Source: Elainellaceae cyanobacterium
Lineage (GTDB): Bacteria > Cyanobacteriota > Cyanobacteriia > CAZCXK01
Length of the DNA stretch: 25,542 bases
Assembly (NCBI GenBank): GCA_051117555.1
Contig: JBNPEG010000122.1
Span: 1-25,542, forward strand
Reading direction: 5' to 3'
Shown here: positions 5,600 through 24,774 of the stretch, in pieces
How the letters are laid out: each line of letters opens with the position of its first letter
Numbering within the stretch: the stretch's first letter is position 1
Notes under the pieces: generated by a model
Told to the model about the DNA's origin: nothing
The model's database searches: none
The model's input: only the letters and a program-made list of their open reading frames with translations
Program-made: the position numbers and the translations under genes

Positions 5600-6241
5600 T
5601 CACTCGTTTCGTTTTTGGGATGGATCAGTTCGCCCAATAGCATTTTCCATCGCATCCAGGGCTGCGCGAGATGCAGCCATAATGTCACGCTCCTCTCCGC
5701 CTAAATAGAGTCGCCCGAAGCTGCCAACCGCAGAGATTCTGAGAATATTAATCAATGCGGCTTTCTCTGCCTCATTAGCAGCGAGGGCGGCATAAGCGGC
5801 AGGCTCGACTTCAAGCACATAGAGGGTCTGCCCAGCAAGAATCATATTCCCCCGTCGGGTGCGATTGATTAGCTGAGTGTGGTGAGCATCGATATTGCGG
5901 ATGATCTGACTCGATATGACCCGTGGCTTATGGCAATCTCGTTGCGTTAGACCAATCGCATCCAAGATGGCTCGCCCTGCCGCTTTGGTGTCACTTTGCT
6001 TGTTGGAATGAACCTCTAGAAGCCCATAAAGCCGCTCAATCATCAAGACTCCTGGGCGTACCATCGCAGACTTAAGGGCAATATCCATCAGGCGATTTGT
6101 TTCGATTCCAGGCAGAATCTCCACCCAGAGGGATGAATCGCCAGGTAACGGCAAAAACCCTTGTGCTTCGGTGCCGAGATACGCAGCGTGTTGCGGCTGC
6201 AAGCTGTCAATGTATACGTAGCTGCGAAGATCGACGCCCAA
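5600..6241 (-). CDS. ccmP: Beta-carboxysome shell pseudohexamer CcmP (BMC-T, CsoS1D-like)
   Basis: 213 aa with TTG start. [18 protein letters not shown]...[11 protein letters not shown]...[25 protein letters not shown] matches CcmP as I recall it. His18, Glu69 and Arg70 are present. Confidence 0.93.
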
Positions 6242-6504: not shown

Positions 6505-8514
6505 CTATGCCCAACCGTTGATCTGGAACCATCCCGCCCGGTTAAGAACATCCCATGAGTAGTCTTGCCCGGTGGTGTAATAATCTACGTCTAGACCTTG
6601 TGCTAGAGCATCTAACACATTGCCTAATCCAGCATTGTAGGCAGCGATCGCCCCTCTGAGCAGCTCTTGACCGTCTAATGTGGTGTTGAAATCAAGGTAG
6701 TCATAGTTGCGAGCTAGGACTTCATCAATGGCGTAGGTGATGTTGTCTTTAGGATTGCTCCAGCGCCCCGACCCAATAAAGCTTTGATGGAAGCGATCGT
6801 CAATCTGCATGATGCCGCGACCGTGTCCGCCATCTCCAGTGCCACCCGGACCAGGAGGGCTGAGTAGTCGCCCCCACCCGGACTCACGGGAGCCGATGCC
6901 ACCAATCACAGACGGTTTGAGCCAGCTATATCTTGCAGCCGCTTGATCCGCAAAGGGTTTATAGCTCGTCCAATAGTAGGTCGGTGTGTTGGCTTCATCC
7001 AGGTGGGGCTTATAAAGCGTGTTGGTTTTAGAAATCGCGGTTTCATAGAGCCCGCCATCATTCAACACGTCTACATAATATGCAGCGACATATCCGTCTA
7101 AACTGCGCCCATTAATCGTCGTACGAACTTTGAACCATTCGTCAAAGCCGTTGAGGTATCGACCTCCGGTGACTTTTTCAACGAGCGTGAGGGGCGTATT
7201 TTGCCCAAGGCGTGCCAACTCGATGCCTGAAATATCTTTGTCGCTTCTCAAGGAGATTTTGTCGTCTGACGTAATCCATACTTTTGAGCTGATCACCCCT
7301 TGACTGAACCCCGGACTGCCTCCGTCACCTGGAATATCGGGTTTGGGAGGGGGTGCAGGCGGGGTGATGATATCGCCGATTGGGATCACGTCGGTTTCAC
7401 CCACGAGATTAACAAAACTCGAATCGGCTGCGACATAGCCCTGCTGACCATCATTCGTAACAACCTGATACCAGTCTTGATAAGAGGTGTCATTGGGCGA
7501 TCGCACCTGCTTGGCGATCGTAAAAGTTTCGCCTTGATTGAGATAGTCGATAGGAATGTTGTTGAAACTAGACGGCTGATTCCTCAGGTTTAATCCGGCT
7601 GACACGACCGAACCTGTTAGGTCAATCCGCTCTAGGGTGACATCGATAATCGATTTACCTCGATTATCAAAATACTGCACATAGAGGTCATAGTTGCCGC
7701 CCTCGCTTGGTGTCAAGAGTTGAGTCCATGCCGGATAGCGGGCTTTGCGATTGCGCCAATCGCCTGACAACTCGGTGACAATCTCATCGGTTTGGGGATC
7801 TTTGAAGAAAAAGCGCGTGCCATCATCAGACTTGCTGCTTAGCCGATAAAACGACCCGGCTTCTAGTTCAACGCGCGTCCACGCTTCCATTGCAAAGCGG
7901 TTTTTGTTGACTCCATCTGCTGGACTGCGTCGACCATAGTTGATATCGAGTTCAGCAATGATATCCCCCGATCCACCATGGCTGCCTAAATCAGCCATGG
8001 CAGCAGGATCTGAAAAATCGTAGCGTCTATAGTTTCTCAAATTGCTGCGATCGCGATTGATAAACCGAGCATTCCAGCTCCGCGTCGCGTTTTGAGGCGT
8101 ATGAGCTGCTCGCAGCTTGGCGGATGATAGGGCTTGGTTTGATGACGAATCTGACTGCCCAGATAGTTGCAACTGGTAGTCTATCGTGCCGTTCGACTTG
8201 GGCATCACGCGAAGAAAATACGTGCCTGGATCTAAGTCATTGTGGCGCAGTGACGTGTTTGATTGGCGGATGCGGCCCCGCTTGACAATTTCGTTGCGAT
8301 CGAGTCGTCCGTTGCGATTGGCATCGTCAATCAACTGGAGGGCAGCCTTACCACCTGTGGCTTGCAAATCGGCTCGAAAACTGCTGCGCTGATTGAATTG
8401 AAACGTGTAGAAATCGCGAGAATTCTTGCCGCCCAGTTCGTGCGTAACGGTGCGTGATGTGTCGGATAGGGCGATCGCCCGTGCGTGTTTTAGATCCTTC
8501 TTACTGCTGACCAT
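6505..8514 (-). CDS. Modular putative peptidoglycan hydrolase: PPC, PA14-like, two SH3b, goose-type lysozyme/GH23 domain
   Basis: PPC (DFYTF...LDPGTYFLRV...YQLQLS). PA14-like (SDDGTRFF...YFDNRG). SH3b (LNLRNQPS...WYQV...GYVAA and ISLRS...WFKV...GYVAAYYV). C-terminal SRES...GD...GIMQID...AIAAYNAG...DY..DV..RA. Confidence 0.85.
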   Translation of the reverse strand: MVSSKKDLKHARAIALSDTSRTVTHELGGKNSRDFYTFQFNQRSSFRADLQATGGKAALQLIDDANRNGRLDRNEIVKRGRIRQSNTSLRHNDLDPGTYFLRVMPKSNGTIDYQLQLSGQSDSSSNQALSSAKLRAAHTPQNATRSWNARFINRDRSNLRNYRRYDFSDPAAMADLGSHGGSGDIIAELDINYGRRSPADGVNKNRFAMEAWTRVELEAGSFYRLSSKSDDGTRFFFKDPQTDEIVTELSGDWRNRKARYPAWTQLLTPSEGGNYDLYVQYFDNRGKSIIDVTLERIDLTGSVVSAGLNLRNQPSSFNNIPIDYLNQGETFTIAKQVRSPNDTSYQDWYQVVTNDGQQGYVAADSSFVNLVGETDVIPIGDIITPPAPPPKPDIPGDGGSPGFSQGVISSKVWITSDDKISLRSDKDISGIELARLGQNTPLTLVEKVTGGRYLNGFDEWFKVRTTINGRSLDGYVAAYYVDVLNDGGLYETAISKTNTLYKPHLDEANTPTYYWTSYKPFADQAAARYSWLKPSVIGGIGSRESGWGRLLSPPGPGGTGDGGHGRGIMQIDDRFHQSFIGSGRWSNPKDNITYAIDEVLARNYDYLDFNTTLDGQELLRGAIAAYNAGLGNVLDALAQGLDVDYYTTGQDYSWDVLNRAGWFQINGWA

Positions 8515-8741: not shown

Positions 8742-9203
8742 TCAGCAAGAAACGAGTGAATCTGCCCGTCTTAGCACGCGCAGATCTTCTTCGTCCAAAT
8801 CCACGGGCGCACCGCTACGAATCAATTCAGCGAAATCTTCATTCGGAACCATAATGCACAGCGCATAGAGGCGATTAACTCCCGTATTTTCGATGATATG
8901 AACTCCGTTGGGTGGCACTAACACGCTGTCCCCTGCCTGAATCGGAACGGTTTTACCATCACAGATCGCGAGTCCTTGCCCCTTGAGAATAAAAAACATT
9001 TCGACTGCAAGCCGATGACGATTGGGCGGCGTTTTGCCACCCACATCGAAAATCTCAACGCAAAACGTTAACGATATATTTGCAATCATCGGATCAAACA
9101 CAAGCGCTAATCGATTCGTATCATTTGGGCTGATCCGATAGGCTTGGTAATCGCCAGGCCCCTTAAAAATAGGGATTACGCACTGTGTCGAATCATCATC
9201 CAT
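8742..9203 (-). CDS. Cupin-domain protein
   Basis: Cupin motifs GGKTPPNRHRLAVEMFFILKGQG and AGDSVLVPPNGVHIIEN. ATG 9203 has GGAG upstream and lies 14 nt after the stop of the upstream hydrolase. Confidence 0.85.
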   Translation of the reverse strand: MDDDSTQCVIPIFKGPGDYQAYRISPNDTNRLALVFDPMIANISLTFCVEIFDVGGKTPPNRHRLAVEMFFILKGQGLAICDGKTVPIQAGDSVLVPPNGVHIIENTGVNRLYALCIMVPNEDFAELIRSGAPVDLDEEDLRVLRRADSLVSC

Positions 9204-9217
9204 TCGGTTATTCTCCA

Positions 9218-10000
9218 TTAGCACTGATTGTTTTGCTCTATCGCAGCTAACAATGCAGATGAGTCTGTAACAAAACCAAAGCACTGATTCACGTTGTAGA
9301 AAGTCGCTTGCAGACAATAATCAGGAGACGTGGTCGCGGTGCAGTCTCGGACCAAAATGCAGTCATAGCCCAGAAAATTGGCATCTTGAAGAGTCGCCAT
9401 GACGCACTGATCGGCATTGACTCCGCTAAAAAACAAGGTGGTTTTGCCTAGATTTCTCAAAATGCTGTCTAGCGGAGTATCCCAAAAGCCACTCATGCGA
9501 TATTTGTCAATGCAAATATCGTCAGGCGTTTGTTCGAGTTCATCGACTACTGCGGCTGCCCAGCTTCCTTTGGTTAGGACGGGGGCATGATTTTTGGGCA
9601 ACGGATCAGCAAGTCCAATCCCATCACCCGTTGGGTTGTAAACATGCCGTAACCCGGCGCTGATGTTCAACAAATCAGGACGATTGCCCCAGTTGAGCCA
9701 AATGATTGGAACATTGGCGGTTCTCAATTCGGGTAAAAGAGTTTTGAGAGGATAAATCGGATCGCGGGCAGGCATCACATCGACACCAATATGCGCCAGC
9801 CAACCGTCGGGATGGCAGAAGTCATTCTGCATATCCACGATAATCATGGCTGATTTAGACAAATCAAGCCGCAATGTTTTCGTTTCAGTTGCCACCTGAA
9901 TGGGGCGAGGGGCCAGGGGAGGACGAGTGATATCTGCAAGCTCTGCATCCACTGACCAAGCATTAGGAGGAATACCTAGGGTTCGGAGCGATCGCGCCAT
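9218..10000 (-). CDS. Isochorismatase-family cysteine hydrolase, RutB (ureidoacrylate amidohydrolase)-like
   Basis: Catalytic triad D (IVDMQNDF), K (DKYRMSGFWDT), C (GVNADQCV). C-terminal ATFYNVNQCFGFV resembles RutB (AALFNIETFFGWV). Start at ATG 10000 assumed; alternative 10057. Confidence 0.85.
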   Translation of the reverse strand: MARSLRTLGIPPNAWSVDAELADITRPPLAPRPIQVATETKTLRLDLSKSAMIIVDMQNDFCHPDGWLAHIGVDVMPARDPIYPLKTLLPELRTANVPIIWLNWGNRPDLLNISAGLRHVYNPTGDGIGLADPLPKNHAPVLTKGSWAAAVVDELEQTPDDICIDKYRMSGFWDTPLDSILRNLGKTTLFFSGVNADQCVMATLQDANFLGYDCILVRDCTATTSPDYCLQATFYNVNQCFGFVTDSSALLAAIEQNNQC

Positions 10001-10163
10001 AGCTTTCAATGTTTCTATCAATAGAGTATGAACAACTCGATGATGCAGACTACCCATGATGACTCTACTGCTGTAGTAATCTAAAAGAGCCCAGGTCTTC
10101 AGTAGTCATCATCACGTTGGAGACGTAAGACACGATAAATTAAGACATAAGTCGAGCCAGAAT

Positions 10164-10550
10164 TTATTCGCCGCAATAAACAATCAGATCGATTTCTACG
10201 TCTGCGAACCCGGCCAGGCCGGTTACGCCAATTGCCGTTCGGCAGGGAAGACCCGTTTCAAAATAAGCCGCATAGACTTTATTGACGGCCTCATAGTATC
10301 GAAAATCTGAGATGAAGACTCGTGCCATCACCACCTTTTCAAATTCTGCTTGCATGTGATCGAGCACGAGTTTGAGATTGTCCATCACTTGTTTGGTTTG
10401 GTCTTCGATCGGGCTTTTGATCACAGTCCCTGTTGCAGGATCTTCTGAAATTTGCCCAGTTACAAACAAAAAATCGCCTGCGCGAATGGCGTGGCAATAG
10501 GGAGCAACAGGCGGTAAGACATTGTTGGGTAGAGTGACACGCTCAAACAT
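10164..10550 (-). CDS. RidA/Rid (YjgF/YER057c/UK114) family enamine/imine deaminase
   Basis: PYCHAIRAGDFLFVTGQI, N.VY..YF, PCRTAIGV (catalytic Arg retained), DVEID. Confidence 0.92.
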   Translation of the reverse strand: MFERVTLPNNVLPPVAPYCHAIRAGDFLFVTGQISEDPATGTVIKSPIEDQTKQVMDNLKLVLDHMQAEFEKVVMARVFISDFRYYEAVNKVYAAYFETGLPCRTAIGVTGLAGFADVEIDLIVYCGE

Positions 10551-10608
10551 AGTAGATAGTTCCTGATAATGGTTAATTAAGGTTCAATCGCTAAATTATG
10601 GTGCTGGC

Positions 10609-12036
10609 GTGAATTATACAATTCAGAATGTTTTGATTGCGGTTAATGACGGATATGAATGCGTCGATGTGGGCATTGCAAATGACCGAATTGCAGCGAT
10701 CGCCCCCTCGTTGCCTCCCCAAGGGACACGGATCAATGGCGAACATAAACTGCTGCTGCCTGGATTTGTGAATGCTCACACCCATACCTCAGAAATGTGG
10801 CAGCGAGGGCTACTCGCGCCTCGACCTCTAGAACTTTGGATTCTAAATTTGAGCAATTCGGAACCGCTCACGCCTGACCAGGTGTATCTCAGTTCGTTAA
10901 GTATGGCGGTTGAGACGTTGCTGTCAGGGGGCACCACGATTTTGGATCATTTGGTTTTGATTGAGGGACGTGAGCATGAATCAATCAAGGCTGCTGCTCG
11001 TGCCTATCAGGAGGTGGGTATTCGAGCATTCATTGCACCCCTGATTCAAGATCAGCCCCTCTCCGCCGGGATTCCCTCCAGCGGTCGACCCATCACCCAT
11101 GAGCCGTATCCGCTAAGCGTGCAAGACAATCTAGAGATGATGCAAACGGCGATCGCCCAGTTTCATTCTCCCGATCATGGAATTAATATTGCCGTGGGGC
11201 CGACGGGGTTTCAGCTTTGCTCAGACGAACTCTTTGAAGGCTGTATCGAATTGAGCGATCGCCATCATCTGCGTCGCCATTGCCACCTGCTCGAAACCAA
11301 AGCACAGAAGCTTTTAGCACAGGAAAAATATGGCCATAGTGCAGTTGAGCATCTCAATAAACTCGGGTATCTCGGCGCACGCACGTCGCTAGCGCATTGT
11401 GTATGGCTAGAGGACGACGAAATTCAAATCATTGCAGAAACAGGTTCTACAGTTGTTCATAACCCTCTGAGTAACTTGCGGCTCGGCAGCGGCATTGCGC
11501 CCATTCTCAAATGTCGCCAAGCGGGAGTCAATGTGGCATTTGGCTGTGATGGACCTGCTAGCAACGATGGGCAAGATTTACTCGAAACCATCAAAATTGG
11601 CGCATTGCTGCACAGCACCACCGATTTAGACTACCGCAACTGGATCACTCCCCGCGAGGCTGTTGATATGGCGTCAATGGGTGGCGTCAAAGGTCTTGAT
11701 TTGGCAGATGAGTTGGGATCTGTGACAGTTGGCAAACGGGCTGATCTCGTGTTGTATGACCTGACGACTCTATCTCTACTACCACGGACTGATCCCATTG
11801 GGTTATTGGTTTTGGGACGACCTACACAGGCAGTCCATAGCGTGTGGGTGAATGGTAGACGGATTGTTGCAGATGGCAATGTCGTAACTGTAGATGTCGC
11901 CGGACTTAGACGGCAGTTGTTTGATCAAAGCCAGTGGCGCAAGCCGATTCCTGAATCGCCTGCTATTCAATCACTAGAGAATCATTACCGGGCTGCAATG
12001 GGGCTATCGCCTTCGAAAACTAATTTGGAGCAATGA
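10609..12036 (+). CDS. Metal-dependent amidohydrolase of the SsnA/AtzA/TrzA/MTA-SAH deaminase group
   Basis: PGFVNAHTH (HxH), HCHLLE (HxxE deaminase motif), LAHCVW, HNPLSNLRLGSG, GCDG, G.V.VGKRADL. GTG start. Confidence 0.92.
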   Translation: MNYTIQNVLIAVNDGYECVDVGIANDRIAAIAPSLPPQGTRINGEHKLLLPGFVNAHTHTSEMWQRGLLAPRPLELWILNLSNSEPLTPDQVYLSSLSMAVETLLSGGTTILDHLVLIEGREHESIKAAARAYQEVGIRAFIAPLIQDQPLSAGIPSSGRPITHEPYPLSVQDNLEMMQTAIAQFHSPDHGINIAVGPTGFQLCSDELFEGCIELSDRHHLRRHCHLLETKAQKLLAQEKYGHSAVEHLNKLGYLGARTSLAHCVWLEDDEIQIIAETGSTVVHNPLSNLRLGSGIAPILKCRQAGVNVAFGCDGPASNDGQDLLETIKIGALLHSTTDLDYRNWITPREAVDMASMGGVKGLDLADELGSVTVGKRADLVLYDLTTLSLLPRTDPIGLLVLGRPTQAVHSVWVNGRRIVADGNVVTVDVAGLRRQLFDQSQWRKPIPESPAIQSLENHYRAAMGLSPSKTNLEQ

Positions 12037-12129: not shown

Positions 12130-13086
12130 CTAATCCGATGGATATTCGGCGAAGCGATCGGTCGCGTCGATCAGAGCATTGCGAATCCCTGGTTCAGTCA
12201 TCGAATGACCCGCATCGGGGACGATAGTTAGTTTCGCGTCAGGCCAGGCTCGGTAAAGTTCCCAGGCTGTTTTCATGGGGCATACGACATCGTATCGCCC
12301 CTGCACGATTACAGCGGGGAGGTGGCGAATTCGGTCAATGTTTTTGAGTAACTGGTCTTCCGATTTGAGAAACCCTTTGTTGACGAAATAGTGGCATTCA
12401 ATCCGCGCAAAGGCATCCGCAAACTGGCTGCTTCGAAATCTCTCTTTGAGTGCCGAGTCGACAAACAGCTTGCTAGTGCCCCCTTCCCATACCGACCATG
12501 CTTGAGCAGCCTCTTGCCGTACGCGGGCATCGTCGCTGGTAAGCCGTTTGTAATAGGCTGACATGAGATCGTGGCGCTCGTCTTCCGGAATGGGGCGCAA
12601 GTATTCTTCCCAAGCATCTGGAAAGATGTAGCTGGCTCCCTCTTGATAAAACCAGCGCAGTTCGCTCTGGCGCAGCATAAAAATGCCTCGCAAAATCAGC
12701 CCGGTGCAGGACTCGGGGTGAGTTTGACTATATGCCAATGCGAGGGTGCTTCCCCAACTGCCACCAAAGACCGTCCATTTTTCAATGCCTAAGTGCGATC
12801 GCAGTCTTTCAATATCGTCTACCAAATGCCACGTCGTGTTTTCTCGTAGTTCAGAGGGTGGCATGCTGTGCCCACACCCTCGCTGGTCAAATAAAACGAG
12901 TCGCCATTTTGTGGGATCAAAGTATTGCCGATAGATTGTTTCGATGCCGCCTCCAGGACCTCCGTGCAGAAACACGGCAGGTTTGCCCTGAGGATTACCC
13001 ACCTCTTCAAAGTAAAGGGTATGAAGGTCAGACACCTTCAAAAAGCCTGTATTGTACGGTTCGATGGGGGGATATAGATCACGCAT
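12130..13086 (-). CDS. pip: Proline iminopeptidase (peptidase S33)
   Basis: MRDLYPPIEPY N-terminus, HGGPGGG, FDQRGCG, GGSWGS nucleophile, GRYDVVCP, AGHS. ATG at 13086. Confidence 0.96.
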   Translation of the reverse strand: MRDLYPPIEPYNTGFLKVSDLHTLYFEEVGNPQGKPAVFLHGGPGGGIETIYRQYFDPTKWRLVLFDQRGCGHSMPPSELRENTTWHLVDDIERLRSHLGIEKWTVFGGSWGSTLALAYSQTHPESCTGLILRGIFMLRQSELRWFYQEGASYIFPDAWEEYLRPIPEDERHDLMSAYYKRLTSDDARVRQEAAQAWSVWEGGTSKLFVDSALKERFRSSQFADAFARIECHYFVNKGFLKSEDQLLKNIDRIRHLPAVIVQGRYDVVCPMKTAWELYRAWPDAKLTIVPDAGHSMTEPGIRNALIDATDRFAEYPSD

Positions 13087-21805: not shown

Positions 21806-22720
21806 CTAGCCGATTCGCGTCTTAAGCCCCGCTTTCAATCGTTGCCATAAATTTCTTTGCATGGGAGGCTGTCTGATCTGCGGAGGCTTTGGTTCTCTAA
21901 GATAGCGGTAATGTTCCCAGATATCCCAATAAGGACATCCAGGCTCGATCCGAATCCCAGCCCAGTGAAGGTATTGAAGGGGCTGATCTAAGTGGGGATC
22001 AAACAATCGGTACTCCCTGGCTACAAAGTGAGAACTGCCTGCCCAACTGCCTGGAGCGCCTCCCGGACGACGTACAACGTTAAACCGACGTGGCACGCGT
22101 TTAAGAATCATGTAATTAATGATGGGCTGGTCTGATGTTTTCTGAGAAAAATCGAAATAGTCGGGATGCGCCGCACATTCGTGGAACACATCATAGATCT
22201 CCGATTCAGAAATCAGATTCTTTTTTGATCCCCATAGCCCGCCGTTGAAAATATCCTGTAAGTCGCTGGGTGTAAACACGTTGTCATCTAACACAGTAGA
22301 TGTAAATACGTTGGTGATGCCGCCGGTGTGTTGATAATCGGCGCACACGAAGTCGTAGCGGTCAAGATAATTTAAGATGTCGATAATCGGTTCAAACACC
22401 ACAATATCGGTATCGATATATAGAAATTCATCGAAGGCGCCAAACCAGCATGCTTGCTTGCGAAACTGGTTAGGGCGGGCAAAAAATTTATCCCCAAAAA
22501 TATCGTAGAGCTGGTTAGACAGGCGATCGATGAAATCTAGATCATCATAGACCGTCACCCCAAACGATTCGTTCAACACCTGAGCAACTGACTCATAGTG
22601 GTCATCATACGGAATCAGAACAATCGGGGTTTCTGAATCGTAGAGTCGAATGCTATTTAAGAGGGCGATCGCCTGATCGGTAACGTTGTCATTGGCCGTG
22701 ATATAGATTCCGCGAGTCAT
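21806..22720 (-). CDS. GT-A/GT8-like putative glycosyltransferase (resembles the cyanobacterial Npun_R2821/R2822 family)
   Basis: GIYITAND...ALLNSI, YIDTD (DxD), FNGGLW, SDQPIINY, YLHWAG. Confidence 0.75.
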   Translation of the reverse strand: MTRGIYITANDNVTDQAIALLNSIRLYDSETPIVLIPYDDHYESVAQVLNESFGVTVYDDLDFIDRLSNQLYDIFGDKFFARPNQFRKQACWFGAFDEFLYIDTDIVVFEPIIDILNYLDRYDFVCADYQHTGGITNVFTSTVLDDNVFTPSDLQDIFNGGLWGSKKNLISESEIYDVFHECAAHPDYFDFSQKTSDQPIINYMILKRVPRRFNVVRRPGGAPGSWAGSSHFVAREYRLFDPHLDQPLQYLHWAGIRIEPGCPYWDIWEHYRYLREPKPPQIRQPPMQRNLWQRLKAGLKTRIG

Positions 22721-22731
22721 TGTAGGTGTCC

Positions 22732-23739
22732 TTAGCGAGTCAGCCCAATTTTGCGAAGCAGGCGTTTTTGTAAGGTTGGAGGGGCGTTATATGCTTTGGG
22801 CGTGCCTGTGAATGCAGGTCGTTGGTCAGGGGCATGGAGATATCGATAATGGAGGAATATATCTCGATACGGAAACTCGATGTTGTCTCCTTCACACACT
22901 TTCGTAAATAGTTTTGACGACAGTCCGATGTAGTGAAGATAGGTCAACCGTTTGCCGTGATCGTAGAGCACATGATCGCGGTCTTCAAAATGGGACGATG
23001 TAACCGAATTTCCGGTGACGTGGGTTTCGGGGAGATGAAATGCTAAGTTACATCGGGAAATGGGCGATCGCAACGCCATATAGTTCAATACGGACTGATT
23101 GGGCGCCGCTAAATACAGCACGTCTGATTCGCCATTTGCAAGCTGATCGACTAGCCAACTGCGGCGCTCCGGAGGAAATACCCCCGTCTTTGAAGCAAAG
23201 AATCCAGAGCAAAAAATCTCCGTTTCTACCTGGGCCCGCTCAAAAATTTCGTAAAGCTTGGGAGAATTTACGTTAAAGATGTGGGTCGGGTCTTTGTGCT
23301 GAAAATCATAGACCACAAAGTCATGGTCATCGAGCGCCTCGAATACCGCATCGAGCGAATTCAGAAGCAGCGTATCGGCATCTAAATATACGAAGCGATC
23401 AAACGGAGCCTCTGGATCAAACGCCGCGTATCGATGGTTGCACTCTAGCCGATAGACGCCTGAAATTCCTTTTTGTTCGTGCCAGGTTTGCAGCGCCTGA
23501 GGATGGGTCGTCCAAACCTGGGTCGAAAACTCTTCCCAACGCGCAAAAATATCAGGTTCGTAAAGCAGCGTGACGGTATCGCGGGTTTGGATTTCTTGAC
23601 GCACTCGCTCTAGCTGATCGTTATAGGCAATCACGCAGACCGGCGTATCCTTGCCCTGATTGGCCTCAATACTGTTGAGTAGAGCAACCAGTTGGTCGAA
23701 GACCACATCATTTGCCAGGGTGTAGATACCATCAATCAT
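22732..23739 (-). CDS. GT-A/GT8-like putative glycosyltransferase, paralog of the downstream gene
   Basis: GIYTLAND...ALLNSI, YLDAD (DxD), FCSGFF, PNQSVLNY, YLHYIG. Confidence 0.75.
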   Translation of the reverse strand: MIDGIYTLANDVVFDQLVALLNSIEANQGKDTPVCVIAYNDQLERVRQEIQTRDTVTLLYEPDIFARWEEFSTQVWTTHPQALQTWHEQKGISGVYRLECNHRYAAFDPEAPFDRFVYLDADTLLLNSLDAVFEALDDHDFVVYDFQHKDPTHIFNVNSPKLYEIFERAQVETEIFCSGFFASKTGVFPPERRSWLVDQLANGESDVLYLAAPNQSVLNYMALRSPISRCNLAFHLPETHVTGNSVTSSHFEDRDHVLYDHGKRLTYLHYIGLSSKLFTKVCEGDNIEFPYRDIFLHYRYLHAPDQRPAFTGTPKAYNAPPTLQKRLLRKIGLTR

Positions 23740-23793
23740 GAGCTGATGCCTTTAGAATTTGGAGAGTAGAACGATACCGAGACAAACATTGAA

Positions 23794-24774
23794 TTATTCA
23801 AGCGTTTCCGCAAATTCGGAGAGCCAGTTGAGTAAATTAAGCTTGTGTAAGATAATCTGACGAGCTTCGGCGATCGCCTCTTTGCGGTCGTACCAAAGGT
23901 CTGGAGTTGCCGTTATCTCACGAATATAGGCCAATCCTTTCTCATCGAGGCTTGGCAATCGGACAAAACTCTCAGGCGGAATCAGCGCATCGGCAGCCGA
24001 GCCCCCGAAGTAAATCGGCAAACACCAGGCCAAAAGAGCATCCCAAAGCTTTTCGCTCACATACCAGTCATTATCCGCATAATTCTCGATCGCCAGATTG
24101 TAATAGTAGGGCGCCATACCGTGCCACTTATTGCGAAGCTCCCCACTGGGATGTGACCAGTCGGGCAAATTGCGCCCATATAGATCAAACTCTAACTCGT
24201 TAGACCGCAGCAATCGCAAAAAATCTAACCGTTTACGATGATTTTCAGTGCGATCGATGCCGGATGTAATCCAGCTACACGGGCGGATTTTTTCAGGAAC
24301 GGGTGCAGTGTTTAACTCCTGAAACGAGCGATTGACATACCAGATCGCAGGCATGTAGTTCGGGTTGGGCGCAAAGTCGTCAGGGCCTGAGACATAACCA
24401 CAATACCGCTGGGCGGCTCGATAGTGAGCCTTATGCTTGTTAATCACCTCGTCGAGCGGCGGTTCGCGCAGAAGATAGATGGTGCGCTCTTTTGGAACTC
24501 CACGCAGCAACGATTGCATATCAGCAGGCGATGTCGGCGCGGGCTTTGATCGCCGCAATTTAGACCACCACGGCTGTTTCGGCTGTGTGGGCTTTGGAAT
24601 ATTGAACTGATACAGAAGCAACATATCAGGTTGAGGCGATCGCGCCAGCATTTGAATGGTGTTCCAAACTCCGAAGTGTTCGGGTGACTGAAACCATAGC
24701 CAGTCATGAGCGCTCGGGTTGAGCCCCTGATACGAACTCAACATGCCAACCACGTGCCTGCCTCTCTTGCCCAT
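23794..24774 (-). CDS. Glycosyltransferase family 10 (alpha-1,3/4-fucosyltransferase-like)
   Basis: YNLAIENY...WYVSEKLWDALLAWCLPIYFG matches the GT10 alpha-1,3-FucT motif. Also REPP and DLYGR. Confidence 0.85.
   Translation of the reverse strand: MGKRGRHVVGMLSSYQGLNPSAHDWLWFQSPEHFGVWNTIQMLARSPQPDMLLLYQFNIPKPTQPKQPWWSKLRRSKPAPTSPADMQSLLRGVPKERTIYLLREPPLDEVINKHKAHYRAAQRYCGYVSGPDDFAPNPNYMPAIWYVNRSFQELNTAPVPEKIRPCSWITSGIDRTENHRKRLDFLRLLRSNELEFDLYGRNLPDWSHPSGELRNKWHGMAPYYYNLAIENYADNDWYVSEKLWDALLAWCLPIYFGGSAADALIPPESFVRLPSLDEKGLAYIREITATPDLWYDRKEAIAEARQIILHKLNLLNWLSEFAETLE

Follow-up and report, generated by a model that had tools for sequence, protein, structure and literature searches.

We report a conserved gene module at positions 8742..12036 of contig JBNPEG010000122.1 from an Elainellaceae cyanobacterium (assembly GCA_051117555.1); the window denotes the whole 25,542-nucleotide stretch that was analysed. 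The locus encodes a cupin, an isochorismatase-like cysteine hydrolase, a Rid protein and a metal-dependent amidohydrolase. The hydrolase, cupin and amidohydrolase are the conserved unit, and AtzE is its best unlinked partner. We tentatively propose, with a confidence just short of probable, that the module breaks down an amino-substituted pyrimidine or triazine derived from damaged guanine, yielding an oxalurate-type ureide for AtzG/AtzE encoded elsewhere. The observed basis of this pathway is gene content, intact catalytic residues, linkage, co-occurrence and gene fusions. All of the parts are known enzyme types, and their combination is not previously described in the literature searched: open full-text papers held no description of the cluster, and a prior mention in subscription papers is possible. 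The module occurs in about one-fifth of the sampled phylum genomes (26/121), yet no core enzyme reaches a curated functional model, the NCBIfam cut-offs being reached by none of the four module proteins. The features are as follows.

8742..9203, minus strand: cupin, a monocupin and core member (PF07883 Cupin_2; 153 amino acids from ATG 9203)
9218..10000, minus strand: isochorismatase-like cysteine hydrolase, core member (PF00857; 260 amino acids from ATG 10000)
10164..10550, minus strand: Rid (YjgF/UK114), accessory insertion (Pfam Ribonuc_L-PSP; 128 amino acids)
10551..10608, no strand: divergent intergenic region of 58 bp between Rid and amidohydrolase
10609..12036, plus strand: metal-dependent amidohydrolase of the Trz/Atz/MtaD group, cyanobacterial core member (Amidohydro_1; 475 amino acids)

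Linkage was assessed in the best 80 of at least 589 hydrolase-anchored places, a sample biased to close relatives with many Microcoleus. Genes within 8 kb were counted as linked, and 52 loci were fully flanked once 28 with short flanks were excluded. Across all 80 loci, the cupin is present in 72, the amidohydrolase in 42, CocE in 35, Rid in 11 and HpxZ in 6, followed by a flavin adenine dinucleotide (FAD) oxidoreductase in 3 and a creatininase and an NMT1-type binding protein in one each. The fully flanked loci carry the cupin in 51, the amidohydrolase in 30, CocE in 29 and Rid in 5; all three core genes stand together in 29 and all four genes in 5. The clustering is not by chance, because it recurs across cyanobacterial genera. 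The preliminary description of this DNA had proposed a unit of four genes, with Rid clearing the enamine product: co-occurrence elsewhere holds for three of these genes and fails for the fourth.

The same unit emerges from whole genomes. Among 121 genomes of the phylum, this one included, the hydrolase is encoded in 26, the cupin in 29 and the amidohydrolase in 26, and 14 of the 15 genomes of one family have the module. A follow-up covered 45 genomes of the same class, 25 with the hydrolase and 20 without, leaving out the other 75 hydrolase-negative genomes. The hydrolase-positive set has the cupin in 25, the amidohydrolase in 22 and AtzE above its cut-off in 23, versus three genomes for each in the hydrolase-negative set; HpxZ follows the same division (9/25 versus 0/20). 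Neither hydrolase nor AtzE is present in genomes G083 and G071, whereas most of their family relatives have both; in G059 and G107 the hydrolase occurs but AtzE does not. The presence of AtzE is not explained by the biuret hydrolase BiuH, found in 8/45 genomes. In the genome studied here, HpxZ lies on contig C11 and the AtzG-like gene and AtzE on contig C177 (L100:3972-7203), in one run with an FAD oxidoreductase and a second Rid that lacks the catalytic Arg at the aligned position.

Rid itself is accessory and not a constant member of the module. Its Arg104, which we take to be the equivalent of RidA R105 in numbering, corresponds in alignment to the RutC Arg of E. coli and is conserved in 11/11 module-linked Rids, that of the window among them. 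The protein scores 104.4 bits against a cut-off of 106.25 for TIGR00004 and fails the RutC equivalog TIGR03610 (65.8 versus 169.1). A close homologue occurs in 3/25 hydrolase-positive and 0/20 hydrolase-negative genomes, two of the three being unlinked to the module. With Rid in 5/52 loci and a close Rid in 3/45 genomes, the four-gene version is not sustained.

The amidohydrolase is predicted to be a deaminase. H57, H59, H226, E229, H263 and D314 are invariant among 26 aligned homologues, as are E62, the Glu three residues after HxH (position +3), and a P-T-G motif, giving the signature HxH-x2-E plus P-T-G. The protein lies below every NCBIfam cut-off listed: 117 bits versus 779 for the methylthioadenosine/S-adenosylhomocysteine (MTA/SAH) deaminase, 250 versus 532 in the 8-oxoguanine/isocytosine/isoxanthopterin deaminase test and 218 versus 540 for the TRZ/ATZ model. 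Top Foldseek matches to its predicted structure (predicted local distance difference test score, pLDDT, 78) are purine and pyrimidine deaminases and AtzA/TrzN, at 22-29% identity. It has neither the W-P-x-E nor the P-H motif of 4f0r, 4dyk, 4dzh and 3lnp, whose Glu and His are presumably the binding residues of MTA/SAH deaminases; with these motifs missing and so low a score, it is not an ordinary MTA/SAH deaminase. The combination of Gln(+3) with P-C-S or P-T-T, seen in 3hpa, 7ww2 and 2paj (the last of which we take to be an isoxanthopterin deaminase), is also missing. Gln occupies the same position in AtzA and AtzB, and among solved relatives with alignments inspected only TrzN matches the amidohydrolase in Glu(+3) plus P-x-G. 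If Gln(+3) contacts the ring carbonyl in these deaminases, as we assume, Glu(+3) would favour an amine in its place. Of the four nearest plasmid relatives in the alignment, three also have Glu(+3); the nearest plasmid relatives (30-33% identity) adjoin genes for nucleoside hydrolase, nucleoside deaminase, BMP-type ATP-binding cassette (BMP-ABC) transporters, creatininase, cytosine deaminase and RidA. Two further unassigned Trz/Atz-group amidohydrolases of this genome, on contigs C92 (L096) and C150 (L097), are accompanied by a BMP-type ABC transporter, a Rieske oxygenase, a 2-oxoglutarate-Fe dioxygenase and a PuuE-like deacetylase; each stretch reaches a contig end, and the two might belong to a single cluster for nucleoside catabolism.

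The cysteine hydrolase has an N-terminal extension, matches PF00857 with 129 bits (cut-off 27) and carries a D56/K166/C199 triad that aligns with that of RutB. It fails both the RutB equivalog TIGR03614 (136.9 bits versus 377.95) and the BiuH model NF050097 (116.7 versus 370). Its identity is 32-35% to RutB and 34% to the genome's own BiuH, and reaches 52-61% with proteobacterial and Streptomyces orthologues. The BiuH motifs T-R-E-G-H and K-P-G-K and the Q-G-G insertion are replaced or missing, and the catalytic Lys is followed by the RutB-type R-x-S-G-F, which suggests a ureido-acid substrate. By these sequence measures the hydrolase is a separate subfamily, neither RutB nor BiuH. The true BiuH of this genome (413 bits) is on contig C250, separate from the module, in a stretch (L095:4422-13002) with a BMP-type ABC transporter, a second isochorismatase-like hydrolase, a glutathione S-transferase-like gene and a creatininase; in genome G017 this cluster and the module are about 7 kb apart. 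BiuH is found in 8/25 hydrolase-positive and 0/20 hydrolase-negative genomes, all eight also having the module hydrolase. In a Symploca metagenome-assembled genome (MAG; L055:5057-7730), a GoxA/LodA-like oxidase and its maturase, both below cut-offs, lie directly upstream of the hydrolase.

The cupin site reads N62-x-H64...E69...H103 in the numbering of a 154-residue query. H64 and E69 are at least 90% conserved among 30 diverse homologues, and the first metal-His position is mostly Asn, with His in some members. The predicted structure has a pLDDT of 92.6, and sequence matches in the PDB are generic. Many of the 40 relatives scanned are double cupins, one of them from Tetraselmis. The relatives P0135, P0137 and P0149 are eukaryote-like double cupins whose N-termini resemble transit peptides by eye, the P0149 cluster including Tetraselmis striata. 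According to the part of PMC13749301 available to us, the 101-residue cupin AzaA uses O2 and water to turn 4-hydroxy-2,5,6-triaminopyrimidine into 5-azacytosine-6-carboxylic acid, and the same conversion also proceeds spontaneously. By analogy, such a reaction would link guanine breakdown chemically to Atz-like enzymes.

Orthologues outside the cyanobacteria place the hydrolase in a recurring company. Orthologues that match at 53-62% identity along most of the protein are found on twenty plasmid records, and annotation was read for seven, including a fragmented Pseudomonas record. Paraburkholderia has BMP-ABC, hydrolase, amidase, AtzG-like, AtzE and hpxZ genes; Rhizobium and Variovorax have BMP-ABC, hydrolase, amidase, TetR and GGT-like genes; Roseomonas has hydrolase, cupin, creatininase, ABC, amidase, hpxZ, CocE and LysR; and Pantoea has creatininase, LysR, BMP-ABC, cupin, hydrolase and amidohydrolase. 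The cupin is present on 2/5 replicons tested, and the BMP-type transporters point to uptake in proteobacteria. On a Streptomyces plasmid the hydrolase follows a biosynthetic-looking cluster (L091:1897-12774: two ATP-grasp ligases, an iron redox enzyme, a pyridoxal phosphate aminotransferase, LysA and a methyltransferase), and the partners just named are missing. Gene fusions draw on the same families. Among 14 long hydrolase homologues, two carry a creatininase domain (P0297 and P0299) and four an amidase domain; P0298, a hydrolase-amidase fusion, is the only one in which the hydrolase domain is near-complete and which has a second member. The 40 cupin relatives include one AtzH-like fusion (P0186, from an actinobacterial MAG). 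Most of these partner families are scattered elsewhere in the present genome.

We used this information to assemble a candidate pathway. The substrate would be a pyrimidine of the triaminopyrimidinone or formamidopyrimidine-guanine (FapyG) type, or an s-triazine carboxylate formed from it by rearrangement; triaminopyrimidinone can be supplied by NADAR enzymes. First, the amidohydrolase would replace a ring amine by oxygen, releasing ammonia. Second, the cupin would rearrange or open the electron-rich ring, a step that could precede the first. Third, the Asp-Lys-Cys hydrolase would cut the terminal ureido amide of the ring-opened acid. Fourth, AtzG/E, plus HpxZ or a GGT-like enzyme where present, would complete the breakdown; Rid may be an optional add-on that hydrolyses an imine by-product. 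As far as the accessible text of each paper goes, AtzH is a decarboxylating amidohydrolase, and atzG-E-H clusters without atzD/F have been read as an older nitrogen-compound catabolism that pre-dates cyanuric acid catabolism (PMC6219798); unidentified enzymes acting on oxidised-guanine products have been proposed to give oxaluric acid (PMC12623156); and triuret has been linked to urate oxidation (PMC7948467). Once assigned, the module would supply three enzyme subfamilies with functions and the orphan atzG-E-H clusters with a likely upstream source.

Several observations weigh against this pathway. The role given to Glu(+3) is inferred, and the Pantoea amidohydrolase is non-orthologous (26% identity, Gln at +3). 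On the replicons of Rhizobium, Paraburkholderia and Variovorax the hydrolase occurs without the cupin, as judged from the replicon only, and most fusions are single sequences, several with partial domains. Anchoring on the cupin (best 80 of 198 metagenome loci, 35 fully flanked) recovers CocE in 26, the hydrolase in 22, the amidohydrolase in 11 and Rid in 6; CocE is thus the commonest partner, and the hydrolase is missing from 13/35. Neither creatininase (15/25 versus 13/20) nor CocE (15/25 versus 9/20) tracks the hydrolase, and both are missing from 10/15 genomes of family f7; entry through a deformylase is therefore not universal. GGT has a close homologue in 4/45 genomes (3/25 versus 1/20). 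NADAR (PF08719) was not found in this genome at 1e-15 and, present in 37/45 genomes, is common in hydrolase-negative ones too (24/25 versus 13/20). Hydrolase-positive genomes are also larger and related to one another, which inflates co-occurrence and makes Fisher values overstate it, kin not being independent. As a separate observation, all 24 CocE-positive genomes fall within the 28 creatininase-positive ones among the 45, so that the distributions of the CocE/NonD hydrolase (L098:3245-4930) and the creatininase-family protein (L095:4422-5264) nearly match; unlinked here, the two may be a second pair of unassigned enzymes.

Regulation also counts against one form of the proposal. The scan sought the exact NtcA consensus GTA-N8-TAC in the 300 bp upstream on the hydrolase side; no box was found in window positions 9991-10700, and boxes were not enriched across loci (4/76 upstream regions versus 6.4 expected by shuffling). 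A transporter is linked in 1/80 hydrolase loci. The earlier suggestion that the module scavenges nitrogen thus finds no backing in cyanobacteria, where internal damage control is as plausible as scavenging, because NtcA boxes are not enriched and linked transporters are rare.

A bolder version of the pathway, which we regard as unlikely, makes the module the catabolic counterpart of azacitidine ring formation. FapyG or triaminopyrimidinone would be converted by the cupin to an s-triazine carboxylate, deaminated in a TrzN-like step to oxonate and then passed to the hydrolase and AtzG/E/H. If true, this would be a new purine-damage pathway common to cyanobacteria, soil bacteria and possibly green algae, and it would name the natural s-triazine substrate class of the enzymes that degrade atrazine and cyanurate.

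Four other readings have to be weighed. Breakdown of a pterin or lumazine, in which the amidohydrolase deaminates a pteridine, the pyrimidine ring opens and the hydrolase takes off the ureido group, has a small chance of being correct. Cyanobacteria make pteridine glycosides, and a creatininase and an FAD oxidoreductase are linked in the few loci counted above (1/80 and 3/80). The cupin is in addition fused to a pterin-4a-carbinolamine dehydratase domain in P0202, a cluster of ten members, seven of them full length. However, the amidohydrolase lacks the Gln(+3) and P-T-T of 2paj, and the Cupriavidus route, as given in the available portion of PMC12391406, uses a molybdenum dehydrogenase and an isomerase as well as a prenylated flavin mononucleotide decarboxylase, that portion making no mention of a cupin, isochorismatase, creatininase or cyanobacteria.

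It is similarly doubtful that the genes are separate house-cleaning hydrolases, loosely clustered, the hydrolase and cupin being the one true pair. In favour of this, the amidohydrolase is divergent, is absent from 22/52 loci and is present without the hydrolase in 3/20 genomes; some lineages have cupin-CocE pairs without the hydrolase, green algae have a double cupin, and no shared upstream motif was seen by eye. This loose arrangement is nonetheless hard to square with genome-level co-occurrence of all three genes and unlinked AtzE, and with the recurrence, in distant phyla, of linkage or fusion to the same few ureide enzymes.

The route proposed in the preliminary description, a RutA-free path from a pyrimidine to ureidoacrylate in which the hydrolase would serve as RutB and Rid would clear 3-aminoacrylate, is improbable. 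In its favour, the hydrolase finds its best match in both PDB and NCBIfam in RutB, the two share R-x-S-G-F after the catalytic Lys, the C-terminal insertion of BiuH is missing, and the catalytic Arg of Rid is intact. Nevertheless, the identity to RutB is low, its N-G-W loop reads W-G-N in the hydrolase, Rid is rare among the loci, and we know of no plausible hydrolytic opening of uracil without RutA or a reductase, given established chemistry. Pfam and NCBIfam scans found no rutA, rutF or rutD in the window, as had been stated. Nor was a canonical Rut pathway found elsewhere in the genome: the RutA model reaches at best 33.9 bits against a cut-off of 498.3, with a protein that passes the NtaA/DmoA model, and E. 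coli queries gave weak matches for RutA (25%), RutD (30% over 84 residues) and RutF (23%), with no match for RutE or RutR, leaving the genome without a RutD or RutE orthologue. No genome among 45 other cyanobacteria has a protein above the RutA cut-off. The module is not a Rut operon, because RutA was not found and the hydrolase and Rid are far below the RutB and RutC cut-offs. The idea of an uncharacterised, RutA-independent N-heterocycle module with a non-MTA/SAH amidohydrolase therefore stands, helped by recurrence of the cluster in other genomes; Rid membership, cyanobacterial nitrogen scavenging and the Rut-like aminoacrylate chemistry do not, the partners that track the hydrolase being amidases of the AtzG/E/HpxZ type instead of RutD/E.

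A xanthinase-type purine route via 4-ureido-5-imidazolecarboxylate, in which the hydrolase would take off the ureido group and aminoimidazole would be deaminated by the amidohydrolase, is very improbable: that intermediate may be seen as an analogue of ureidoacrylate and BMP-type transporters adjoin the orthologues, but the accessible part of PMC12507026 reports the pathway in Clostridia and Bacilli, no UbiD-type decarboxylase is among the recurring neighbours, and the link to AtzG/E/HpxZ is left unexplained. The remaining probability falls to another substrate class.

The four open reading frames (ORFs) are uninterrupted, and their positions and arrangement match those given before; the ORFs and alignments confirm an amidohydrolase divergent from Rid, hydrolase and cupin. 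The hydrolase starts at ATG 10000, where homologues begin, a 279-residue ORF being too long; a 191-residue cupin ORF from TTG is over-extended, and the alternative cupin start at ATG 9218 would give 158 residues and overlap the hydrolase stop (TAATG). No Rfam element was found in the 58-bp intergenic region. The genome is 6.06 Mb and 100% complete, its cyanobacterial placement being indicated by CcmP and by its relatives. Neighbours in the window are CcmP, an SH3/SLT protein, a prolyl aminopeptidase (the alpha/beta hydrolase at 12130, above that cut-off), a class I aminotransferase and a class I fructose-bisphosphate aldolase; none is among the top recurring neighbour clusters of related loci. 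The carboxysome protein CcmP (5600-6241, minus strand) is above its cut-off, with no other ccm genes near in the window. The gene directly downstream of the cupin (6505-8514, minus strand) encodes a 669-residue protein that has an SH3 domain and, at its C-terminus, a weak match to SLT transglycosylase. Farther away (21806-24774, minus strand) are two proteins of the Npun_R2821/R2822 family, above cut-off, and a GT10 fucosyltransferase-like gene.

The module can be compared with several known systems. It resembles E. coli Rut in joining an Asp-Lys-Cys isochorismatase-like hydrolase to an Arg-bearing Rid, but it has no RutA/F/D/E/R orthologue, its Rid is usually missing, and it is accompanied by a cupin, AtzE-type amidases and an amidohydrolase of the deaminase type; its hydrolase and Rid score far below the Rut cut-offs. 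With the 8-oxoguanine, isocytosine, isoxanthopterin and MTA/SAH deaminases the amidohydrolase shares the fold (template-modelling scores 0.66-0.74) and metal ligands, whereas their specificity motifs are missing. AzaA of azacitidine biosynthesis is alike in being a cupin that makes an amino-s-triazine carboxylate from a pyrimidine derived from guanosine triphosphate, the chemistry that the proposed pathway would need; as described in the portion of PMC13749301 available, it is set apart by being biosynthetic, by its 101 residues against 153 and by a canonical His/His/Glu/His site against N-x-H...E...H. The related BiuH/TrtA clusters in nitrifiers do not cover the module's hydrolase clade in the available text of PMC12625717, whose supplementary trees might include it. 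With s-triazine and ureide catabolism (TrzN/AtzA/AtzB; BiuH and TrtA; AtzG-E-H; Klebsiella HpxWXYZ), the module shares enzyme superfamilies, the TrzN-like Glu(+3)/P-x-G, strong AtzE co-occurrence, and amidase, AtzH/HpxZ and GGT-like genes as linked or fused partners. It differs in the 22-27% identity of its amidohydrolase to the triazine hydrolases TrzN/AtzA/AtzB, in a hydrolase without BiuH motifs beside a true BiuH elsewhere in the genome, and in a conserved cupin that is not part of those pathways as the sources available describe them.

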